A DNA stretch of 64,000 nucleotides from an uncultured Alphaproteobacteria bacterium. Lineage in GTDB: Bacteria; Pseudomonadota; Alphaproteobacteria; RF32; CAG-239. Made by a program: the position numbers and the translations under genes. The stretch lies in the NCBI GenBank assembly GCA_944391505.1, contig CALXTV010000007.1:2839-66838 (forward strand), read 5' to 3'. The notes below the pieces were generated by a model. The model was given only the letters and a program-made list of their open reading frames with translations. It was not told where the DNA came from and did not search any database. Every line of letters begins with the position of its first letter. Position 1 is the stretch's first letter. This document shows positions 13,139-60,971 of this stretch, one piece after another.

Positions 13139-14680
13139 ATGAATTTGCAGCAGAAATCTAAAAAAATAAAAGAAATCAAGCAAGGTATGCGCAAAGCCGC
13201 ATTAGTCGGTTTGGCTTCGTTGGTTACGACAACTGCTCTTGGCAAAGAGAGCAAAAATGATTTTGGCGGAGATGCTAAAAAAAATCAAACTGAAATCCCG
13301 GCAGTTTCTCCGGCAGAAAAGTCTTCCGAGTGTGCCTACTATGTCAATAATCTGACGCTTGATGCCCAGTCTCCGATTTGTCAGATATATAAGGTCAGCC
13401 GCCATAAGGCGTTCTATTCACATTATCTCAACGGCGGTGCCGGCGGCATTGTCTTTACCCGGTTCCATATCAGTGATGCCGATGCTTTTGGCAATGCCAA
13501 TCAGACCGGTCCCGAAAAATTTTCCAAAGCATTGCAGGATTTTGCGTCACGAGCTAAAAATTTTGGTTATAAAGACGAAATTAAAAATCTGGACGATGTC
13601 GCACGTTGTCTGGCTTCTTATGCCGACAGCAATCGGAAAAAAGACCGTTACATCGGCGAAGCTCTGTCGCAGAACTATGCGGACAGCGGGCTGCAGGCAG
13701 CCCGGACATTGAAAGAAACCGTTGCCGATCTGAACGAAGCTAATCTTAAAATGGCAAAACACGAGCAGACGCATGCTTCCAACGGTCAGTATATGAAAGC
13801 GGTTAAGACCGGCGATATTTTGCTGTCTCCGGGCGGCATTTATTTGGCTCGCATGGCCGATGAGCTGCGGGCGCAGATAAAAGGCGGCAATATTCAGGCA
13901 ACAGCTGCCGGAGTAGAAAACTTTTTTGCTGATTTCGGAGCCGGATATTACGAACAGTATACGTCGGATATTCTCCAAGACGTTTCTTATAATCGGATGT
14001 TTGCCTATGCCTTGAACGAAGAACAGGCAGAACGCCGTATTCCGGCCGAGATTAACAATTCGCTGCTTGGTTTTGAAATGGAAGGCGTTGACAGCCGGGG
14101 AAGAACGCACACAATCAACGGCGTGGAAACTTCCCGGGGATTTGTTTATTTCGGCGGCGAAGATGTTTCGTCGGTTAAAATGAAAAACGGCCGTGTCCTG
14201 CCGCTGAACTGTCTGGCTGATGCCGAAGGCCGTGCGCTGAAAGACGGTAACGGCCAGAAAATACCGGCGCGGGTCATTTATAACGACGGCGATTTTACTG
14301 TTGCCCTGGCGGGAAGCGTTTTGACAACGAAGGACATGGATAGGAATCTGGATGAAGCGCTGCGGCACATATTGCGCGATTTGACGCCTTCAGAGCAAAA
14401 AACGGTTCTGGACGCATTGAATGCCCATTGTCGTGACGATGCTGACAAACTGACTAATGCCCTGTTGCAGGATTCGGACTCGTTAATGAAAATGCGCGCC
14501 GAATCCGATAATGTTGCCGCGGATTTGCAGTATATCCGCGAGAAAAGGGCCTCTTTTCTGCAAAAGGCCGGGGAAGAAAAATATGCAGGCATGAATTTGG
14601 TACGGATTGATTCGTTACAGGATAATTCTTTGCACTTGACCCCGGCAATGTTTCGGCAGCCGTCTGCGGAACGGAAATAA
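13139..14680 (+). CDS. Secreted hypothetical protein (signal peptide)
   Basis: AAGGATA RBS. The N-terminal MRKAALVGLASLVTTTALG is signal-peptide-like. 513 aa with no recognisable catalytic motif. Confidence 0.7.
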   Translation: MNLQQKSKKIKEIKQGMRKAALVGLASLVTTTALGKESKNDFGGDAKKNQTEIPAVSPAEKSSECAYYVNNLTLDAQSPICQIYKVSRHKAFYSHYLNGGAGGIVFTRFHISDADAFGNANQTGPEKFSKALQDFASRAKNFGYKDEIKNLDDVARCLASYADSNRKKDRYIGEALSQNYADSGLQAARTLKETVADLNEANLKMAKHEQTHASNGQYMKAVKTGDILLSPGGIYLARMADELRAQIKGGNIQATAAGVENFFADFGAGYYEQYTSDILQDVSYNRMFAYALNEEQAERRIPAEINNSLLGFEMEGVDSRGRTHTINGVETSRGFVYFGGEDVSSVKMKNGRVLPLNCLADAEGRALKDGNGQKIPARVIYNDGDFTVALAGSVLTTKDMDRNLDEALRHILRDLTPSEQKTVLDALNAHCRDDADKLTNALLQDSDSLMKMRAESDNVAADLQYIREKRASFLQKAGEEKYAGMNLVRIDSLQDNSLHLTPAMFRQPSAERK

Positions 14681-14814: not shown

Positions 14815-15099
14815 TCAGCTTTCAAAACGGTCAAAAAGCTCTTTTAATTCGTTAAGTTTTTGCTCTTTGTCTTCTTCCGAATTGAAAGACTGGGCAACGC
14901 AATGCTGCAAATGCGTCTTCAGAATACTGCTTTCTACGGCGCGAATGGCCGAGCGGGCAGCGCGAAGCTGAATCAAAATATCAGGACAATAGCGCTGCTC
15001 CTCAATCATTTTCTTCACGCCCTCCAACTGCCCGATAACTCTGTTCAGGCGCGGAAGCTCCCGCTTGTGGCAGGGATGTTGATGTGTTTGGGGTTCCAT
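14815..15099 (-). CDS. csoR: CsoR/RcnR/FrmR-family metal-sensing transcriptional repressor
   Basis: 94 aa carrying the family signature RxxGQLxGVxKM...YCxDIL...H...C, including the CPDIL motif. Confidence 0.85.
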   Translation of the reverse strand: MEPQTHQHPCHKRELPRLNRVIGQLEGVKKMIEEQRYCPDILIQLRAARSAIRAVESSILKTHLQHCVAQSFNSEEDKEQKLNELKELFDRFES

Positions 15100-15119
15100 C
15101 TCGGCCTCGCAAATTTAAG

Positions 15120-15275
15120 CTATTTGTCGCAGTCGCACTTGTGACAGCCGCATTCTTTTTCATTGTTTTTGCAGCCGCAGTCTTTGCCTTCGCCGCACTG
15201 ATGAGTTTCATCGCAGGTGCAGTTGTCGCCGCAGGTGCAGTCCGGGTTTTTGCATTTCGGGTTATTACAAGCCAT
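15120..15275 (-). CDS. Metallothionein-like Cys-rich peptide (51 aa, 15 Cys)
   Basis: AAGGAG RBS 7 nt upstream of the ATG. MACNNPKCKNPDCTCGDNCTCDETHQCGEGKDCGCKNNEKECGCHKCDCDK has CxC/CxxC clusters. It lies 20 nt upstream of csoR on the same strand. Confidence 0.7.
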   Translation of the reverse strand: MACNNPKCKNPDCTCGDNCTCDETHQCGEGKDCGCKNNEKECGCHKCDCDK

Positions 15276-15299
15276 TTCAAATCTCCTTGTTAAATTCTC

Positions 15300-15350
15300 A
15301 TACCCTCTTGGGGTATATAAAATGTATACCGTCCGGGGGTATAATGTCAA
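15300..15350 (-). promoter_or_regulatory. sigma70 promoter with two CsoR-type operators
   Basis: On the minus strand: TTGACA (15345-15350), a 16-nt spacer, then TATACAT. Operator ATACCGTCCGGGGGTAT (15326-15342) lies in the spacer and operator ATACCCTCTTGGGGTAT (15300-15316) lies just downstream of the -10. Both fit TACCC-N5-GGGTA. Confidence 0.7.
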
Positions 15351-15420: not shown

Positions 15421-16707
15421 ATGCGGACTGACCGGAGTATTATCTATCATATTTACCCGCTGGGTTTCTGCGCGGTTGAACCGCGCAACAGCTTTACAAC
15501 CAACCCCGTAAATCGAATATCCAAAATCGAAAACTGGCTGCCGCACATCAAAAGCATGGGCTGCGATACGCTTTTGTTGGGGCCGGTGTGGGAAGCTTCC
15601 GCACATGGGTATGATACGGCTGATTTTTTTCATCTGGATCGCCGCCTCGGCTCAAATGAAGACTTCAAAGCGGTTGCAAAAGCAGTTCATGCTACCGGAA
15701 TGAATCTGGTTCTTGACGGTGTTTTCAACCATGTCGGCCGCGATTTCTGGGCATTTCGCGACGTCATCGAAAAACGCGAAAACTCGCCGTATAAAGACTG
15801 GTTTACCATTAATTTCAGCTTAAACAACGGCTTCAACGACGGTCTGTGTTACGATGCCTGGGAAGGCTGCGAAGATTTGGTTGCTTTGAACCTGTCCAAC
15901 GCCGCCGTCCGGCGTCATCTTCTGGATGCGGTCCGCTTCTGGATAGAAACGTTTGATATCGACGGCCTGCGTCTGGATGTCGCCTATTGTCTGAATATGG
16001 ATTTTATGCGCGAACTTCGCGATTTTACCGCCACTCTCAAACCCGGCTTCTGGTTGTTGGGCGAAGTTATCAAGGCCAATTATCGCCGTTGGCTGCGTCC
16101 CGGACTGGTTGATTCGGTAACCAATTACGAATGTTGGAAAGGCTTGTGGTCAAGCTGCAATACGCATAATATGTTCGAAATCGCTCACTCTCTGGATAGA
16201 CAGTTTGCCGAAGACGGTCCCGGCATTTATCGAAGCTGGCGGCTTTATAATTTTGCCGACAATCACGATGTCAGCAGGCTGGCGTCAAAACTCAAAGACA
16301 GCCGCCATCTGCCTCTGGTTTACACTTTGCTCTATACCATGCCGGGAATTCCGTCTTTGTATTACGGCAGCGAGTGGGGCGTTCCCGGCCGCAAAAACCG
16401 AGGAGACGGAGATTTGCGCCGTAGTTTGGAGCTTTTGCCGGATAATGCCCTGACGAATGTCCTGCGCCGACTTTCCGAACTCCGCAGCCGGTTCCCGTCG
16501 TTGGTTGATGCGCCATACCATCGTTCCGAACTTGGTAATGAGTTTTTAAGTTTTTTCCGGGATAATCTTTTTATTGCCGTCAATATCGGCGCCGAACCGG
16601 TCGAACTGACGGCGCCTTTCGGGCGTTTGACCGTTGTGCCGTTCTCGGCGGCAGTCTTTGAACCAAACGGCAATTGCCTTTTTTCTGTAGAAAATTTTTT
16701 GCTTTGA
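15421..16707 (+). CDS. GH13 alpha-amylase family glycoside hydrolase
   Basis: Conserved regions DGVFNH, GLRLDVAY, GEV and FADNHD. Confidence 0.9.
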   Translation: MRTDRSIIYHIYPLGFCAVEPRNSFTTNPVNRISKIENWLPHIKSMGCDTLLLGPVWEASAHGYDTADFFHLDRRLGSNEDFKAVAKAVHATGMNLVLDGVFNHVGRDFWAFRDVIEKRENSPYKDWFTINFSLNNGFNDGLCYDAWEGCEDLVALNLSNAAVRRHLLDAVRFWIETFDIDGLRLDVAYCLNMDFMRELRDFTATLKPGFWLLGEVIKANYRRWLRPGLVDSVTNYECWKGLWSSCNTHNMFEIAHSLDRQFAEDGPGIYRSWRLYNFADNHDVSRLASKLKDSRHLPLVYTLLYTMPGIPSLYYGSEWGVPGRKNRGDGDLRRSLELLPDNALTNVLRRLSELRSRFPSLVDAPYHRSELGNEFLSFFRDNLFIAVNIGAEPVELTAPFGRLTVVPFSAAVFEPNGNCLFSVENFLL

Positions 16708-16717
16708 GGATTTTGTC

Positions 16718-18097
16718 ATGACCCGCCGTATTCGCTTTATTCTGCTGTTGGCAATTTTTATCGGTGGTTATGCCTCGTTGTCGTTGGAACTTATTGTTTT
16801 GCGTCAGTTGAGCGGTTTTGTCGGCTCAACGGCCATCACAACCTCGATTGTCATCGGAATTTTTTTGGCTTTCATGTCTTTGGGGTATTGGCGAGGTGCC
16901 GAACTTCCGCTGAATCGAAACTCCGCCCGGAGCGTTGCGTCGCGCGATTTTGCCGTCGTGGCTCTGATGGTGGTCTTGGCCTCAAGTTATATCTTGCTCG
17001 ACATATATTTTGGACTGATGAGCGTTGCCGGTCTGAAGTCAAACGTGCTGAAAACCTTTATTTACTCATTTGCATTTTTGTCTTTTGGCCCCTATTTGTT
17101 TGGTAAAATCACCGCGCTTCTCAGCCGCTGCCTAAATCGTTACAATCGCAACTGCACCGGCAAAATTATGGCGGTCGATACGCTGGGGTCGGTACTGGGG
17201 TCGATTTTGACAACGCTGGTCATCATGCCTTTTATAGGTGTTAATCACACGATTATTGTGGCCGTTGTTGCTACGGTTGCCGCATCGGCGCTGTTGGCCA
17301 AAAAAGTCGCCTGGTATTGGCTCGGACTGATAATTGTTTCTGCTGTTTTGTTCAATCGCAACCATCTGCTGCGCGATGTCTATAATATTGTTGAAAACAA
17401 TGCCTTATCGACAATCTCTGTTTTTGATACGGATGACGGACGGGCGCGGGCCATGGTCATTAACGGCAGCAGTTCCTCCAAAATCTCTGAAGACCGGGAG
17501 CTTTGGTTTGGCTACGTCCGCTATGTGCAGGAGAATTTTATTGAAACGCTGCCCAAAGACCGGAAGAGAGACATACTGATTCTCGGTGCCGGCGGTTTTA
17601 CCATGGGCGAGGGAGATGTTTTCCATAATTATACGTTTCTTGACATTGACCGTTCGCTCCAAAAAATTTCCGAAGAAAAATTTCTCGGTCATAAACTGAC
17701 TCCGAACAAGCGTTTTGTTGTTGAAGATGCCAACCAGTTTCTGAAAGACAGTACGCAAAAGTATGATCTGATTGTGTTGGATACTTATTCCAGCATGGGC
17801 ATAATCCCGATGGATCTGATTACCCACGAATATTTTGCCAGAGTGAAAAACAACCTCAAACCCGGCGGCATTGTTGTAATGAATATTCTTACCAGTCCAA
17901 ATTTTAGCGATGCTTTTGCCGTCAACATTGACAATACCATACGCTCGGTTTTTCGTCATGCCTTGTCACGTCAGGTCATCGGCAGCTTCAACGCCTGGGA
18001 ACACCAGCGGGCGAACGTCATATATGTCTATTATGATGTTGAAGACAAGGGCGGCGTTTATACCGCAGACAAAAACGCCGTCTTCTACGATATGTAA
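16718..18097 (+). CDS. Membrane-bound spermidine-synthase-like aminopropyl/methyltransferase
   Basis: About 7 N-terminal TM helices. The C-terminal domain ILILGAGGFTMGE...VVEDANQFL...YDLIVLDTYSS has the spermidine synthase fold signature. Confidence 0.75.
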   Translation: MTRRIRFILLLAIFIGGYASLSLELIVLRQLSGFVGSTAITTSIVIGIFLAFMSLGYWRGAELPLNRNSARSVASRDFAVVALMVVLASSYILLDIYFGLMSVAGLKSNVLKTFIYSFAFLSFGPYLFGKITALLSRCLNRYNRNCTGKIMAVDTLGSVLGSILTTLVIMPFIGVNHTIIVAVVATVAASALLAKKVAWYWLGLIIVSAVLFNRNHLLRDVYNIVENNALSTISVFDTDDGRARAMVINGSSSSKISEDRELWFGYVRYVQENFIETLPKDRKRDILILGAGGFTMGEGDVFHNYTFLDIDRSLQKISEEKFLGHKLTPNKRFVVEDANQFLKDSTQKYDLIVLDTYSSMGIIPMDLITHEYFARVKNNLKPGGIVVMNILTSPNFSDAFAVNIDNTIRSVFRHALSRQVIGSFNAWEHQRANVIYVYYDVEDKGGVYTADKNAVFYDM

Positions 18098-45306: not shown

Positions 45307-47565
45307 ATGAAAAAAATAGCGTTTGTTTTTTGCGGGATGATGCTGGCGTCGAAGGCCGGAGCGGTCACTCAGATAATTGAAGCCGGCGACGATGTCAGCG
45401 GCGGAGATGTCAATACGGTTGTAACCCAGGAAGTTTACGGAACAACCAGAAACTTTACTGTTTCCGGGGTTCAGCAGGTTATGTCGGGAGGCAAAACTTA
45501 TAACAGCAATATATATTCGTACGGACGCCAGGATGTTGAAACGGGCGGTATATCGTATAATACGAATGTCCAGTATTACGCCACACAAAACGTAAGCGGC
45601 GAAGCATATTCTTCCGTCGTTGCCACCCGTGGCAATATAAATGTTAGCAATGGCGGCTATGTGCAGGATACGGTGGTTAACGGCGGAACATTAACTGTTT
45701 CGGCAGGCGCTTCGGCCAAAGGCACAATCTTAAACAGCGGCCGCGAAAACGTTTCAGGGACGGATGAAAATGCACGGATTTCTGACGGGGTGCAGGAAAT
45801 AAGAAACGGAGGCGTTTCCCGCCAGGCCACGATAAGTGGAGGAGTGCAGCAGGTTGATGCCGGTGGTTCGAGTATTGGTGCCGTTATCTCCGGAAGCGGC
45901 CGACAGCAGGTGCGCGGAACAGTAAGCGGAACAGTTGTGCAAAGCGGCGGAGTTTCCAATATCATGACCGGTGGAACAGCGGACGGCACAACGCTTAACG
46001 GCGGCGATATGTATGTCGACGGAACTGCAAGCAACACGACCATAAATGCGGGAACTCAGATTGTTTTCGGAACCGATACAAATACGATTATTAATGGTGG
46101 AGTACAACAGATAGAAAGCGGCGGTCTGGTCTCCGGCGCCTTGGTTCAAAACGGTGGCGTGCAAAGTGTTTTTTCTGGAGGGGAAGCAGAGAATACGACA
46201 GTCAGTCGTCGCGGTGGTCTTTTCCTTTTTGCAGGCGGCACGTTATCCGGACAAACTAAGGTGTCGAACGGTCTTGTCACGGTTGTTGGCAGCAACCGGA
46301 TTCCGGACATGGAACTGGATAATGCCGTTGTCAATATTCCATACAGCAGGGGCTTTTCATCGTTGGAGTTTGACAAGTTGTCGGGGCGGGGTGTCTTTGG
46401 CATTAGCAGCAGTCTTTCGGAAGGACTTTCCGATAAAATTGTAATCCATTCGGGAACAGGCAGTTTCGGTCTGATAATTCATGACTACAGCCCGGAAGGA
46501 AATATCCCGGAACAATTTGGCATAATTAATGAAGGAAGCGGAGGCACGGAAGATTTTTACTTAGTCGGAGGAGCCGTCGATGTCGGTGCTTTTCAATATA
46601 ATCTCAAACAAAACGGGAACGAATGGTTTTTGTCTCGTACGCAGAATGTGACGGATAGCGCCGTCATCGCCAAAAACACCTATTCATCGTTGGCATCGCT
46701 GTTTTATACGCATCTGACCCCGGTCTATAATCATATTCGCAGCCGGCGGAACGCGTCGGGACATGACAATGGCTTGTGGATTAAAGGACTGGGGCAAAGA
46801 GTCAAATTTAAATATAAAGATAAGAGCAACAGCAGAGCAGACATTTACGGTACGGAAATCGGGTATGATCGCGAAGTTTGGCGTCATGAAGGACACTATT
46901 TGAGTATGGGCGCTTATGGCGGCTATACGGATACACGGCAAAAATTTGACCGCCAGGGACAAGGCGACGCATATACGCACTCTTTAGGTCTTTATGCCCT
47001 TTTAAATACGAATGACAACTGGTTTCTGGATATGGTCGGCACTTATTTCTGGCATCGTCAGAAGCTGAAAAGCTATACACCGGCGGGAAGTGCCGTCAGA
47101 GGCAAATACGACACAAACAGCTGGCAGTTATCGGCATCTTTGGGCAAACGTATAAGTTTAAACGGTCAATGGTTTATAGAACCGTCTGTCGGTTTGAATT
47201 ATATGCACATTGATGCCGTTCATTACCGAACCAGCTTCAACACGCTGATTGAAACTTCGGACGCGGGATATCTGAGCAGTCGGTTCGATTTGTCGGCAGG
47301 CCGGTCTTTTGCCTGGGGCAATGGCAACTTCTTGGATGCCTACGGACGCTTTGCCCTGATTCATGACCTTGACGGCAAAAGCCGTGTTCGCGTTGCCGAT
47401 TATGAGTTTACGGAGGATTTATCGTCATTGAGGTATGAACTGGGAGCCGGTGTAAGCACCTCGTGGAGTGAAAACGGTACCGCTTATCTTGAAGCCTCCA
47501 CACAATTAGGCAGCCGTGTTCGGCTGCCTTGGGAAGTCAACTTTGGAATTCAATATCGGTTTTAA
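45307..47565 (+). CDS. Autotransporter (passenger with GG-rich beta-helical repeats, C-terminal beta-barrel)
   Basis: Signal peptide. About 15 copies of the GGxxxxTxIxxGG pattern. The C-terminal barrel ends ...NFGIQYRF. Confidence 0.85.
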   Translation: MKKIAFVFCGMMLASKAGAVTQIIEAGDDVSGGDVNTVVTQEVYGTTRNFTVSGVQQVMSGGKTYNSNIYSYGRQDVETGGISYNTNVQYYATQNVSGEAYSSVVATRGNINVSNGGYVQDTVVNGGTLTVSAGASAKGTILNSGRENVSGTDENARISDGVQEIRNGGVSRQATISGGVQQVDAGGSSIGAVISGSGRQQVRGTVSGTVVQSGGVSNIMTGGTADGTTLNGGDMYVDGTASNTTINAGTQIVFGTDTNTIINGGVQQIESGGLVSGALVQNGGVQSVFSGGEAENTTVSRRGGLFLFAGGTLSGQTKVSNGLVTVVGSNRIPDMELDNAVVNIPYSRGFSSLEFDKLSGRGVFGISSSLSEGLSDKIVIHSGTGSFGLIIHDYSPEGNIPEQFGIINEGSGGTEDFYLVGGAVDVGAFQYNLKQNGNEWFLSRTQNVTDSAVIAKNTYSSLASLFYTHLTPVYNHIRSRRNASGHDNGLWIKGLGQRVKFKYKDKSNSRADIYGTEIGYDREVWRHEGHYLSMGAYGGYTDTRQKFDRQGQGDAYTHSLGLYALLNTNDNWFLDMVGTYFWHRQKLKSYTPAGSAVRGKYDTNSWQLSASLGKRISLNGQWFIEPSVGLNYMHIDAVHYRTSFNTLIETSDAGYLSSRFDLSAGRSFAWGNGNFLDAYGRFALIHDLDGKSRVRVADYEFTEDLSSLRYELGAGVSTSWSENGTAYLEASTQLGSRVRLPWEVNFGIQYRF

Positions 47566-57748: not shown

Positions 57749-57778
57749 CCACCTTAAATAGGTGGTTTTCTTTTAATT
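57749..57778 (+). terminator. Intrinsic terminator/attenuator ~30 nt upstream of the autotransporter start codon
   Basis: ccaccttaaataggtgg plus ttttcttttaatt. Confidence 0.55.
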
Positions 57779-57806
57779 GCAATTAAAGAAAAGGAAGTTT
57801 AATCAT

Positions 57807-60800
57807 ATGAAAAAATCTTTATTAATGACAACAGCATTGGTTGCACTGGTGAGTGCATCTAATGCCCGCGCTGAAGATTGGACAGTCAGTGCGCCGGAAA
57901 GTATTGAAAACCAAATCCTAAATAAAGACAATGTAACCATTCAAGCCGGAGGCGAAGTTGCAATTTCCGGAGACACGGAAAGCGGCATAATCGCCAAAAG
58001 TTTTACGATGGAAGGCGGAAAGCTGACCGCAACATCGGTTAACGGCAGCGCCGACACCGGAATTTTCGTTAAATCGGACAGTTCAGACATAAACTTGAAT
58101 GGCGGCACCATCGAGTTAACAAATTCACGCATCTACAAAGGCAATGATACAGAGACAAGCGGAGATATTAATATTTCCGGTGGAGATATTACTTTGAATA
58201 AAGATGCCTATATTGAAATGCGGAAAGAAAACAGCGGTAATGTCAATATAACCGGTGGCAACTTACTCTTAAATGAAAATTCAGCCTTGCTCATCAATAG
58301 CAACAATGACCAAGAAGTTGAGGGCAACGCCTCCAAGGTGATAATCAATGGGGAAGGGGCGCAAATTACGGCAACCGGAAACAACCGCATCACGGGAAAT
58401 ATTGATTTTACGAACGGAACCCTAACAGTCAGCGACAATGCAAGTTTGACTTCCGGTGATATAACTATGTCCGGTGAAGATGCTCAGATAGATTTGTCCG
58501 GCCAGTTGAATACAAATATTTCCGGCAATGGAAATATCACATTCCAAAATTCGTCCTCAAATATTAAAGGGAATGTCTCAGGCTCTCATTTAACCTTTGA
58601 AGCAGACCATTCTTTAAGCCAAGCTATTTCGGGCGGTATTTCTAATTTAGCCTCTTTGAGTGTTAATAAAGGAACATTGACGTATGATAAACCTTCGGAA
58701 GGTCTTTTAGGTGATGTGAAGGTTGCTCAAGGAGCGGGATTAAATGTTAATAAATTTATGCAAACCAATGATTTAACGCTTAACGGAAAAGTCAGCATCA
58801 ATGATGATGTCGCCGCACAAGGAAACATCAAAATAGCCGATGCCTCGATTGATTTGAACGGCAAGTCATTAAATGCCATAAAAGAAGGTATTACAATGAC
58901 GAGCGGAACCATCAATATGAACAATGGCTCAGGCGACCAAGATTTAACCCTTTGGGCGGCTAAAGATATTAATATCTTGGGCGGTACAATTAATATGAAT
59001 GGTCGCGAAGCATACATTGACACATTTTATGACTTGCTTAACCCTGATGACCATACACCGCTCCCAAAACCGGACACTCCTGGAAATATTAATATTTCTA
59101 ATGCGACCATTAACGTTAACAGCAATTCGGCGGAAATATCTTCCGAAGGAAAGATTAATGTTTCCGATAATGCGGTCATCAATATCGCATCTGGTGCAAA
59201 ATTATCTTCTTATGAGAGCTTTAGCATTAAAAATGCAGATTTAGTATTAGGTGATAAGGCCACTATCAATCTTACCGGTACCGGCGCAATTAATATTGCC
59301 GGTAATTTGGCGGCAAATGTTGAAGGTGATGGTAATCTGAACATTAAGTCTTCTAATGCGGTAATTGATGGTGATATCAAAGGCTCGCAATTAACCTTTG
59401 AGGCAGACCATTCTTTGAGTAAAGCTCTGTTGGGTGAGAATATTGAATTAGCCTCTTTGAACGTTAACAAAGGTACGTTGACTTTTGATAAACAACCAAC
59501 TTCAATCACCAATTTGAATGTTGCCGGAGGTTTGGACATTGGTACCAATACCGTAAAAGCTACCAATGTTTCCTTCAAAGACAACTCCACGCTTAAATTC
59601 ACGGTTGCCGGTAAAGAAGACGGAAGTTATGGTAAAATTCAAGCTAGTACGATAGATATTAGCACAACCGGTACCAAACTTGATTTAACCTTAAACAGCA
59701 GTGTTTTGGGTAAAGATGAAGCAAAAGATTTTACTATTCTTGATGGTAGTGTCAGCGGAGATTTTGCGGAGTTAAGCAAAAACAGCCGTTATGAATTTGA
59801 AAAATTAGGAAACGGTCAATATAAAATTACCGGAAAAGCCTCAGCGGCTGATATTGCGACAGAAGCCGGCGGTAATGCCAACAATGTCGGCACTGCAACG
59901 GCTTGGGATGGTGTTTCTTTAGATAACCCAAGCGGTTCAACTTCCGGACAAGTTGCCAATGCCTTGGCTGAATTGGCTGGTAAACCGGATGCCGCCTCAC
60001 AAAAGGCTTATGTAGATGCTTTGACCGCGGTTGCTCCTGAGGTTGCGCCAATGGTTCAACATACACAAACCGAAACCGCAAACCAAGTCTTTGGCGCTGT
60101 CGGTACACGTTTAACCGGTGGTTCTGTTTCTACCGGTGGTGAAGGTATGTCTTCCGGTGATAATATCTTTGAGCGTGCCGCAATGTGGGTTCAAGGCTTG
60201 TTTAATAAATCTAAACTTGATGACACTTCAAAATCTTATGGCTTTGATGCAGATTCAAACGGTATCGCCATGGGTGCTGAAAAATATGTAACGGAAGACA
60301 CCAAAGTCGGTTTAGGTTATGCTTATACCAACACCGATATTGACGGCTTCAAAAGAGATACTGATGTCGATACACATACCGCCTTTGTTTATGGCGAATA
60401 TAAGCCGAGTAATTGGTATGTTAACGGTATCGCCTCATACGGCTGGTCAGATTATGACGAAAGCAAGAATGTTGCCGGAGTTAATGTTAAGTCTGACTAT
60501 GATGCCGAAACCTTTGGTTTGCAAGCTATGGCCGGTTATGACATGCAAATGAAACACTTCGGTTTAACTCCTGAAGTTGGTTTGCGCTATGTTCACATTA
60601 GCCAAGACAGCTATAAAGATTCTGCCGACCAAAGAGTATCTGCAAATGATAGCGATATCTTAACCGGTGTTATCGGTGCTAAAGTCAGCAAAACTTGGAC
60701 GCTTGAAAACGGTATGAACATTAAACCGGAAGCACGCATTGCCGCAACTTATGACCTGATGAACGATGACACAAACTCTGTCGTAACTTTGGCCAATGGT

Positions 60801-60971
60801 TCGGCTTATGCGGTCGATGGCGAAGCTCTTGACCGTTTCGGAATGGAATTCGGTGCCGGTGTAACTGCGGAAGTTAACGACAATGTTGAGCTTTCTCTCG
60901 GTTATGAGGGCAAATTCCGCGATAATTACGAAGACCATACAGGCTTGATTAACGCTAAATATAAGTTTTAG
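57807..60971 (+). CDS. Autotransporter with large repetitive passenger domain
   Basis: AAGGAAG RBS, signal peptide MKKSLLMTTALVALVSASNARA, and an internal duplication (LTFEADHSLSQAISGGISNLASLSVNKGTLTYDK / LTFEADHSLSKALLGENIELASLNVNKGTLTFDK). The C-terminal beta-barrel ends ...INAKYKF. Confidence 0.9.
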   Translation: MKKSLLMTTALVALVSASNARAEDWTVSAPESIENQILNKDNVTIQAGGEVAISGDTESGIIAKSFTMEGGKLTATSVNGSADTGIFVKSDSSDINLNGGTIELTNSRIYKGNDTETSGDINISGGDITLNKDAYIEMRKENSGNVNITGGNLLLNENSALLINSNNDQEVEGNASKVIINGEGAQITATGNNRITGNIDFTNGTLTVSDNASLTSGDITMSGEDAQIDLSGQLNTNISGNGNITFQNSSSNIKGNVSGSHLTFEADHSLSQAISGGISNLASLSVNKGTLTYDKPSEGLLGDVKVAQGAGLNVNKFMQTNDLTLNGKVSINDDVAAQGNIKIADASIDLNGKSLNAIKEGITMTSGTINMNNGSGDQDLTLWAAKDINILGGTINMNGREAYIDTFYDLLNPDDHTPLPKPDTPGNINISNATINVNSNSAEISSEGKINVSDNAVINIASGAKLSSYESFSIKNADLVLGDKATINLTGTGAINIAGNLAANVEGDGNLNIKSSNAVIDGDIKGSQLTFEADHSLSKALLGENIELASLNVNKGTLTFDKQPTSITNLNVAGGLDIGTNTVKATNVSFKDNSTLKFTVAGKEDGSYGKIQASTIDISTTGTKLDLTLNSSVLGKDEAKDFTILDGSVSGDFAELSKNSRYEFEKLGNGQYKITGKASAADIATEAGGNANNVGTATAWDGVSLDNPSGSTSGQVANALAELAGKPDAASQKAYVDALTAVAPEVAPMVQHTQTETANQVFGAVGTRLTGGSVSTGGEGMSSGDNIFERAAMWVQGLFNKSKLDDTSKSYGFDADSNGIAMGAEKYVTEDTKVGLGYAYTNTDIDGFKRDTDVDTHTAFVYGEYKPSNWYVNGIASYGWSDYDESKNVAGVNVKSDYDAETFGLQAMAGYDMQMKHFGLTPEVGLRYVHISQDSYKDSADQRVSANDSDILTGVIGAKVSKTWTLENGMNIKPEARIAATYDLMNDDTNSVVTLANGSAYAVDGEALDRFGMEFGAGVTAEVNDNVELSLGYEGKFRDNYEDHTGLINAKYKF

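Follow-up and report, generated by a model that had tools for sequence, protein, structure and literature searches.

Organization of the predicted peptide-csoR operon

We analyzed a 64,000-nucleotide (nt) stretch of contig CALXTV010000007.1 from an uncultured alphaproteobacterium, and this whole 64-kb stretch is called the window below. On its minus strand the window carries a gene for a Cys-rich peptide of 51 amino acids (aa), followed by csoR, which encodes a CsoR-family repressor. Both genes lie behind one promoter that is overlapped by two palindromic boxes. An earlier reading of the window (the sequence-only reading) had described this layout, and we confirmed all of its elements on the minus strand: the promoter, the boxes, an AAGGAG ribosome-binding site (RBS), the 51-aa open reading frame (ORF), the 20-nt gap, and csoR (Table 1).

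Box 1 nearly fills the spacer between the -35 and -10 hexamers, with its 3' arm overlapping the -10, and box 2 covers the predicted transcription start. Both boxes had been matched to TACCC-N5-GGGTA, the inverted repeat of CsoR operators; this holds exactly for box 2, whereas box 1 departs from it at one position. A promoter scan read the same promoter as TTGACA-18-TACATT (10/12), and homologues have TATATT or TATAAT at the -10 position. The RBS is kept as AAGGAG or GGAG in nearly all homologous loci.

A mechanical ORF list for the window gives a 76-aa, TTG-started ORF at the peptide gene. We preferred the 51-aa form because the RBS and all homologues support its ATG, in agreement with the earlier observation that the true form falls below the size cutoff of the ORF listing. 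We scanned the gap between the peptide gene and csoR in the window and found no terminator-like site; a 20-nt gap without a terminator suggests that the two genes are co-transcribed. Downstream of csoR, the RNA folded no better than shuffled sequences, giving no support for a terminator there. Scanning the window for Rfam families and tRNAs gave no matches.

Table 1. Coordinates of the operon's features within the window.
Feature	Positions	Strand	Remarks
-35 hexamer, TTGACA	15345-15350	minus	From sequence and promoter scan; TTGAC(A/T) kept in csoR-linked homologous promoters
-10 hexamer, TATACA	15323-15328	minus	16-nt spacer from TTGACA
Box 1 (distal CsoR box), ATACCCCCGGACGGTAT	15326-15342	unstranded	One mismatch to TACCC-N5-GGGTA
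Box 2 (proximal CsoR box), ATACCCCAAGAGGGTAT	15300-15316	unstranded	Exact TACCC-N5-GGGTA, perfect 6-bp arms
Shine-Dalgarno sequence, AAGGAG	15283-15288	minus	7 nt before the ATG at 15275
Gene for 51-aa metallothionein-like peptide, MACNNPKCKNPDCTCGDNCTCDETHQCGEGKDCGCKNNEKECGCHKCDCDK	15120-15275	minus	TAG stop at 15122-15120
Intergenic spacer, 20 nt	15100-15119	minus	GAGG at 15108-15105 as csoR ribosome-binding site
csoR, 94-aa CsoR/RcnR-family repressor	14815-15099	minus	ATG at 15099, stop at 14815

The small ORF and its product

To judge the small ORF, we compared 33 orthologous modules over a 25-codon core and counted 551, 759, and 6330 pairwise differences at codon positions 1, 2, and 3, so that third-position changes outnumber those at the first or second position by about 10:1. 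Seven Cys, one His, and one Gln are invariant in the 33 orthologues, with TGT and TGC both used, and non-Cys residues (N, P, K, G, D, H, and Q) are conserved as well. By this codon-position pattern, the small ORF is a real protein-coding gene under strong purifying selection on the protein. The pattern excludes an ORF that arose by chance and speaks against a simple leader peptide. Together with the conserved RBS, it bears out the earlier reading of this ORF as a peptide gene.

The conserved N-terminal 27 residues of the peptide follow the pattern C-N-N-P-K-C-K-N-P-[DN]-C-T-C-G-D-N-C-x-C-D-E-x-H-Q-C. The C-terminal half varies, with CxC repeats, a CCC tail, and 10 to 17 Cys in single-module forms, and the module is duplicated among relatives, up to three copies.

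The window peptide has 13 Cys (25% of its residues), two His, and five CxC motifs. The 15 Cys first reported for it was an overcount, and the description of the 51-aa ORF as Cys-rich stands. It contains no Phe, Trp, or Tyr and no Leu, Ile, or Val, has no hydrophobic core, and carries no signal peptide. In size, Cys content, CxC motifs, and the absence of aromatic residues and of a core, it agrees with the operational definition of a metallothionein, and its composition supports the earlier description as metallothionein-like. We therefore regard the peptide as metallothionein-like and probably metal binding. AlphaFold modeled it with low confidence (pLDDT 64) and without secondary structure, which fits a fold that would form only around metal. 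We also considered the precursor of a ribosomally synthesized and posttranslationally modified peptide, or a secreted Cys-rich peptide, and ruled these out because there is no leader or signal sequence and there are no conserved adjoining maturation or export genes.

Pfam and NCBIfam searches with the peptide and longer members gave no significant match, even at E <= 10, Metallothio_6 aside; this best Pfam metallothionein match had an E value of 0.53 for one member and 0.005 for member P0017, neither of which reaches the cut-off. A profile of the family matched no chain among the PDB sequences. Against 1.84 billion representative proteins, a profile search returned seven matches, all family members or fusions, and known metallothioneins were absent among these seven. 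The PF02069 (BmtA/SmtA) profile did not match the peptide even at E <= 10. In direct comparisons with reference sequences entered by hand, SmtA had no significant similarity to the peptide, and the best match to MymT was the five-residue CTCGD (E 0.068). Nor did the peptide have a Pfam match to an HMA-type CopZ chaperone or a Csp storage protein, and at 51 aa it has no predicted helices; CopZ-type proteins have an HMA fold with MxCxxC, and Csp proteins are four-helix bundles of about 120 aa lined with Cys. A literature search within one searchable library found no description of the motif or of a CsoR-linked metallothionein outside mycobacteria. Since no Pfam metallothionein match is significant, the peptide family is best treated as independent, and by these searches it looks like a new bacterial metallothionein family.

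The CsoR-family repressor

The csoR product matches the helical-bundle domain PF02583 (DUF156) with an E value of 7.6e-27 and 94 bits, against a cut-off of 22.8. Its best NCBIfam model is RicR, under that model's strict cut-off. Its best PDB matches are Geobacillus CsoR (4M1P, 6.9e-17) and the Ni sensor InrS (5FMN, 2.9e-16), and the third-best is 6AHX, which has RDC at the position of the RYC motif, where InrS has RPC. FrmR-type matches were much weaker than those to CsoR or InrS. Cys38, His63, and Cys67 align with RYC...H-x3-C of 4M1P, with Tyr37 preceding Cys38, and none of these four residues varies among 20 orthologues (in this alignment, the reference rows for B. subtilis, M. tuberculosis, and RcnR were entered by hand). 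A Glu in the last helix, within NELKELF, is also conserved across the orthologues, and we take the Tyr and this Glu to be the second-shell pair of Cu(I) CsoRs. The PF02583 match, the C-H-C ligand set, and the RYC tyrosine uphold the earlier assignment of the gene downstream of the peptide to the CsoR family.

Operator boxes across species

Boxes 1 and 2 are the only TACCC-N5-GGGTA matches in the window at no more than one mismatch. At least two matches were found in 15 of 100 shuffles of the window. Because a count of two is not rare, the case for the boxes rests on their position and conservation. Two boxes within one promoter, in an arrangement kept in dozens of species, are far beyond chance.

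We scanned one genome per GTDB species and found 32 peptide loci, 19 of which have a linked csoR (17 directly downstream and 2 after one intervening gene). At least one strict TACC-N7-GGTA box is present in 18 of the 19 csoR-linked loci versus 1 of the 13 without csoR (Fisher p = 7e-7, with loci taken as independent and shared ancestry ignored). Across 184 kb of loci, 29 of 32 motif occurrences fall within 200 nt upstream of peptide genes. The same association is seen within a syntenic pair, as locus L023 has both csoR and a box and locus L019 has neither csoR nor a promoter box. The promoters share one plan: TTGAC(A/T), three to four bases, a box running into the -10, usually a second box, and the RBS. 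The second box lies 24 to 28 bp from the first in most csoR-linked loci and up to 35 bp in a few distant ones.

We then derived a consensus from 42 boxes. Positions that the search had left free proved to be conserved as well, with A at -1 in 35 of the 42, C at +4 in 33, G at +10 in 38, and T at +15 in 41, giving (T)ATACCC-N5-GGGTAT(A) with a freely varying spacer. This consensus equals TATACCC-N5-GGGTATA, the experimentally defined CsoR box of Bradyrhizobium liaoningense and Corynebacterium glutamicum (PMC5057107), and the RicR site of M. tuberculosis (PMC3944814) resembles it. On this comparative evidence the boxes are probably operators of the linked CsoR, as had been proposed for the two sites overlapping the window promoter; they co-occur with csoR across species and hold fixed promoter positions. 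In some loci the palindromic boxes scored as weak terminator-like hairpins on the opposite strand. We rejected a role as terminators because the boxes lie inside the promoter, upstream of the gene.

An extra TACCC-N5-GGGTA palindrome occurs downstream of the peptide/csoR genes in two loci (L019:3299 and L023:3601), near the 3' end of a convergent gene for a DMT_6 (DUF486) membrane protein. This palindrome might belong to a terminator or serve as an additional operator.

Range and variants of the peptide family

Among 5.8 billion clustered proteins, a search identified 13 relatives of the peptide. All 32 loci of the GTDB scan come from metagenome-assembled genomes (MAGs) of uncultured gut Alphaproteobacteria from humans, mice, rabbits, and deer. 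Scanning metagenomes brought in 30 more loci, most of them from the human gut; these have csoR and two boxes wherever the contig is long enough. More distant CsoR clusters (61 to 67% identity) extended the range: six of six have a related Cys-rich ORF of 36 to 41 codons upstream (for example MAKCSNPKCTCDPCTCGDNCQCDGTTCKCPKPADKK, MAKCNNPNCKCENCRCGENCKCGTECGCGTNSGCGCKKNEK, and MANCTNPKCKCINCKCGENCTCDGDTCNCPPECNEE), none of which was called by gene callers, with one or two boxes and the same promoter plan. One of the six clusters is annotated as Candidatus Avelusimicrobium, of the phylum Elusimicrobiota. At locus L083, box 1 is framed by a perfect TTGACA-17-TATAAT, and a terminator-like hairpin separates the peptide gene from csoR; in the more distant relatives, such a hairpin may raise the ratio of peptide to repressor. 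As judged by these sequence matches, members of the family occur in gut Alphaproteobacteria and in at least one other phylum, Elusimicrobiota, and they are usually unannotated. The sequence-only reading had placed the system in a lineage different from the mycobacteria, which is right and understates its spread.

In public gene calls, csoR is sometimes over-extended to 130 to 154 aa, across the peptide gene in another frame. The peptide ORF is missed or overrun in P0020, P0022-P0028, and P0138 and in loci L043-L048 and L081-L083. The family is thus largely invisible in protein databases because callers miss the small ORF or extend csoR over it.

Two arrangements join the module to other metal-related proteins. 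In two rabbit-gut Alphaproteobacteria MAGs (L041:2891-4482 and L042:2998-4598), a three-module peptide of about 108 aa, whose middle module is His-enriched (CHNPHCHNPEC), is followed by a poly-His cation diffusion facilitator (CDF) exporter (PF01545 and PF16916) and then by csoR, all behind a single box between the -35 and -10. At L077:1230-2732, two Cys modules (KPCTNP[HY]CNNPNCKCGDQCKC) are fused in frame to the N terminus of a CotA-like multicopper oxidase (PF07732 and PF00394) that has no signal peptide.

P0014, a public gene product of 124 aa, joins an unrelated N-terminal part without a Pfam match to the last 39 residues of the window peptide and is probably an assembly or gene-call chimera. 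The product of L075:2498-2914 begins with a Cys-rich N-terminal tail (CKCGENCTCNEDC...CGCGCKCGKSCGC), after which come a hydrophobic, transmembrane-like stretch and a SIMPL (DUF541) domain. The tail may bind metal while anchored in the membrane, and how it relates to the peptide family is uncertain.

Proposed mechanism and effector metal

Building on the observed anatomy of the locus, the protein-level selection on the ORF, the family and ligands of the repressor, and operators that are conserved and occur together with csoR, we propose that the operon is a metal-derepressed, autoregulated metallothionein module. We hold this reading to be probable, with Cu(I) as the leading metal. One sigma-70 promoter would give a bicistronic mRNA encoding first the 51-aa cytosolic peptide and then the CsoR-family repressor. 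At low metal, CsoR tetramers would occupy both (T)ATACCC-N5-GGGTAT(A) operators, and with these placed at the -35/-10 spacer and the transcription start, RNA polymerase would be excluded. A rise in metal, most probably Cu(I), bound at Cys38, His63, and Cys67, would cause CsoR to leave the DNA. The derepressed peptide would then sequester metal in thiolate clusters, and the repressor added from the derepressed csoR would shut the operon once free metal is buffered again. We infer the binding of CsoR to the boxes, the metal-dependent derepression, the metal binding by the peptide, and the identity of the metal from the comparisons above. The sequence-only reading had proposed a Cu(I)-derepressed metallothionein under an autoregulated csoR; comparative genomics backs the module, and Cu(I) is a best guess for its metal.

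The choice of metal is the weakest link, and we favor Cu(I) as the likeliest effector on three observations. The repressor has the C-H-C set together with the RYC tyrosine and the last-helix Glu, the operator equals the box of copper CsoRs, and in L077 the module is fused to a multicopper oxidase.

Several points weigh against a firm assignment to copper. The Ni(II) sensor InrS scores nearly as well as the Cu CsoR and also binds a CsoR-type inverted repeat (PMC3320959). At the N terminus of the repressor, a previously unremarked His11 in a P-x-H motif is invariant in all 20 orthologues and could be a fourth ligand, as in H-C-H-C sensors. His6 aligns with one N-terminal position of InrS, presumably its ligand His21; this N terminus is flexible, and the alignment assigns no ligand there. 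The invariant His of the peptide is more typical of Zn-thioneins, and the exporter in the L041/L042 operon comes from a family of divalent-cation transporters. In Bradyrhizobium, Zn and Cd induce the CsoR regulon, as Cu does (PMC5057107). Neither the 64-kb window nor the surroundings of the locus in related genomes contained copA or another copper gene, and we found no copper ATPase within 10 kb of the locus in a related near-complete genome (JBKXPK010000001.1, 1.89 Mb). The large ORFs of the window encode MscS, autotransporters, a glycosyltransferase, MdoG, DsbD, and a CoA-enzyme activase, and no P-type ATPase. Finally, the oxidase fusion is known from one AT-rich, 2.7-kb metagenomic contig, and a protein search with the L077 N terminus found no second multicopper oxidase fusion.

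The proposed control by CsoR also has its counterexamples. Thirteen of the 32 species keep the peptide without csoR, 12 of these also without a box, so CsoR control of the peptide is not universal. In one group of low-GC relatives (L007:5001-5531, and also L021, L024, L027, and L061), a 43- to 50-aa peptide with a CCC tail is encoded 13 nt upstream of rbfA-truB-rpsO-pnp, with neither csoR nor boxes. Such csoR-less loci suggest constitutive or otherwise controlled expression.

Alternative explanations

Several of these points also make the case for the strongest alternative, in which the architecture is the same and the effector is divalent (Ni, Co, Zn, or Cd), acting through an InrS/DmeR-like repressor on a Zn/Cd/Ni-thionein. 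It draws on the close scores of InrS and the Cu CsoR, the position of His6, the invariant His11, the CDF exporter lying between a His-enriched peptide and csoR in L041/L042, the invariant His of the module, and the Zn and Cd induction in Bradyrhizobium. However, the RYC tyrosine and last-helix Glu are found in all orthologues, unlike the RPC of InrS and the RDC of 6AHX, the boxes equal the Cu-CsoR box, the L077 oxidase fusion speaks for copper, and the CDF exporter is limited to one small clade. On balance we consider a divalent effector rather unlikely. A broader proposal, which we offer only tentatively, is that the peptide founds a modular, cross-phylum, and nearly unannotated metallothionein family built on a unit of about 27 residues (7 Cys, 1 His), whose CsoR, with its additional invariant N-terminal His, answers beyond copper, for example to Zn, Cd, or Ni. 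In that case, many anaerobic gut commensals would rely on the peptide as their main cytosolic buffer for soft metals, and it would be the first metallothionein under a CsoR-family regulator that responds to divalent metals.

A second alternative puts the peptide in the place of CopZ, as a trafficking or sensing partner that hands metal on to CsoR, an exporter, or a cuproenzyme or tunes the set-point of the repressor. Its position directly upstream of csoR mirrors what we take to be the copZ/csoZ-csoR arrangements, no HMA-type chaperone or ATPase is nearby, and the L077 fusion could mean delivery of metal to an enzyme. Yet 13 Cys in 51 residues and modules in up to three copies point to capacity more than to one transfer site, and the peptide occurs without csoR in 13 species. 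We judge this role improbable, and less likely than a divalent effector.

Still further down, the repressor might sense persulfide, an oxidant, or an aldehyde, as CstR and FrmR do, with the peptide as a thiol or sulfane-sulfur buffer. The CsoR/RcnR family includes nonmetal sensors, FrmR gives weak matches, and a peptide so rich in Cys could scavenge electrophiles. Against this stand the invariant His63 and the presence of the full C-H-C set with Tyr, the much stronger matches to CsoR and InrS than to FrmR-type proteins, the CxC-rich, coreless composition typical of metallothioneins, and the metal-related contexts of the other modules (CDF exporter and multicopper oxidase), and we hold a nonmetal signal to be very unlikely. 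Finally, we dismiss a chance ORF or regulatory leader (for example, one sensing cysteine supply) with ordinary palindromes or terminators as boxes: the ORF is short and uncalled in many public annotations, and boxes in some loci score as weak opposite-strand hairpins, but the third-position excess and the conserved non-Cys residues already contradict it, and the RBS is conserved, the peptide is retained where csoR is absent (13 species) and also occurs in duplicated or fused modules, and the boxes hold fixed promoter positions that track csoR.

Genes around the operon

A perfect plus-strand TATAAT (15340-15345) overlaps box 1 and the minus-strand -35. It lies 75 nt upstream of a divergent alpha-amylase-family gene (15421-16707) and has a poor -35; this gene is followed by one for a spermidine-synthase-like membrane protein (16718-18097). 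The divergent promoter, too, might come under the influence of CsoR. The synteny is kept in the closest relatives only.

Convergent to csoR is a plus-strand ORF of 513 aa without a Pfam match (13139-14680). It has counterparts of 513, 515, and 436 aa in L002, L003, and L005, respectively, and L001 and L004 have an 82-aa ORF instead, so the region differs between strains with identical CsoR. Farther away on the plus strand, the window encodes two autotransporter-type proteins (45307-47565 and 57777-60971), one with Pertactin, AIDA, and Autotransporter beta-domains and the other with an Autotransporter beta-domain alone. They are consistent with a host-associated Gram-negative organism.

Significance and relation to known systems

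As of 2020, SmtA and MymT were the only bacterial metallothioneins with a studied biological role (PMC7387436). The locus points to a further family, unrelated in sequence to either, that appears common in uncultured gut Alphaproteobacteria and present in Elusimicrobiota. With a sensor gene and two clear operators physically linked to the peptide gene, the system lends itself readily to testing in a heterologous host. It would reveal how copper or zinc, whether from the diet or imposed by the host, is buffered in gut anaerobes that have no copper pump close by, and it would supply a compact cassette of metal-inducible promoter, repressor, and sink.

Among known systems, the cyanobacterial Zn system SmtB-SmtA (BmtA; PF02069) shares with the window a metallothionein gene adjoining the gene of its own metal-sensing repressor, and His alongside Cys in the peptide, but its regulator is of the ArsR/SmtB type, whereas ours is a CsoR. 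InrS and DmeR-DmeF involve Ni/Co-sensing repressors of the CsoR/RcnR family, with a CDF exporter as a target. InrS is nearly as similar as the Cu CsoR and binds a CsoR-type repeat (PMC3320959), and the CDF exporter of the L041/L042 operon and the conserved N-terminal His of the repressor are further points of likeness to this group. InrS differs in having RPC in place of the RYC tyrosine, and the window operon itself has no exporter.

The CsoR operons for copper chaperones and ATPases (B. subtilis copZA, Bradyrhizobium csoR-cueA, C. glutamicum, and Thermus copZ-csoR-copA) have the same repressor family and ligand set. Their operator likewise overlaps the promoter, and the Bradyrhizobium and C. 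glutamicum box is that of our 42-box consensus. In contrast, the window operon and its vicinity contain no P-type ATPase or HMA-domain chaperone, and the only cargo of the operon is the metallothionein-like peptide. The peptide itself resembles eukaryotic Cu-thioneins, namely Neurospora Cu-metallothionein and the mammalian beta-domain, which are similarly small, free of aromatic residues, and built on C-x-C-G-x-x-C-x-C spacing.

The closest system overall is RicR-MymT of M. tuberculosis, in which a CsoR-family repressor governs a Cu(I) metallothionein and to which the sequence-only reading had drawn an analogy. The two share a CsoR-family repressor that is autoregulated, an operator of the TACCC-N(4-5)-GGGTA type (PMC3944814), and a small, Cys-rich cytosolic peptide. 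The analogy holds for this pairing of repressor and metallothionein-like peptide; the peptides themselves are unrelated in sequence, without detectable similarity between ours and MymT, and the hosts are gut Alphaproteobacteria and Elusimicrobiota here and Actinobacteria there. The genes mymT and ricR are separate loci, whereas the peptide gene and csoR of the window form one operon. A metallothionein controlled by a CsoR-family repressor is therefore already known in kind from RicR-MymT and is no surprise in principle. What is new here is a modular, mostly unannotated peptide family, probably co-transcribed with its sensor in gut commensals.

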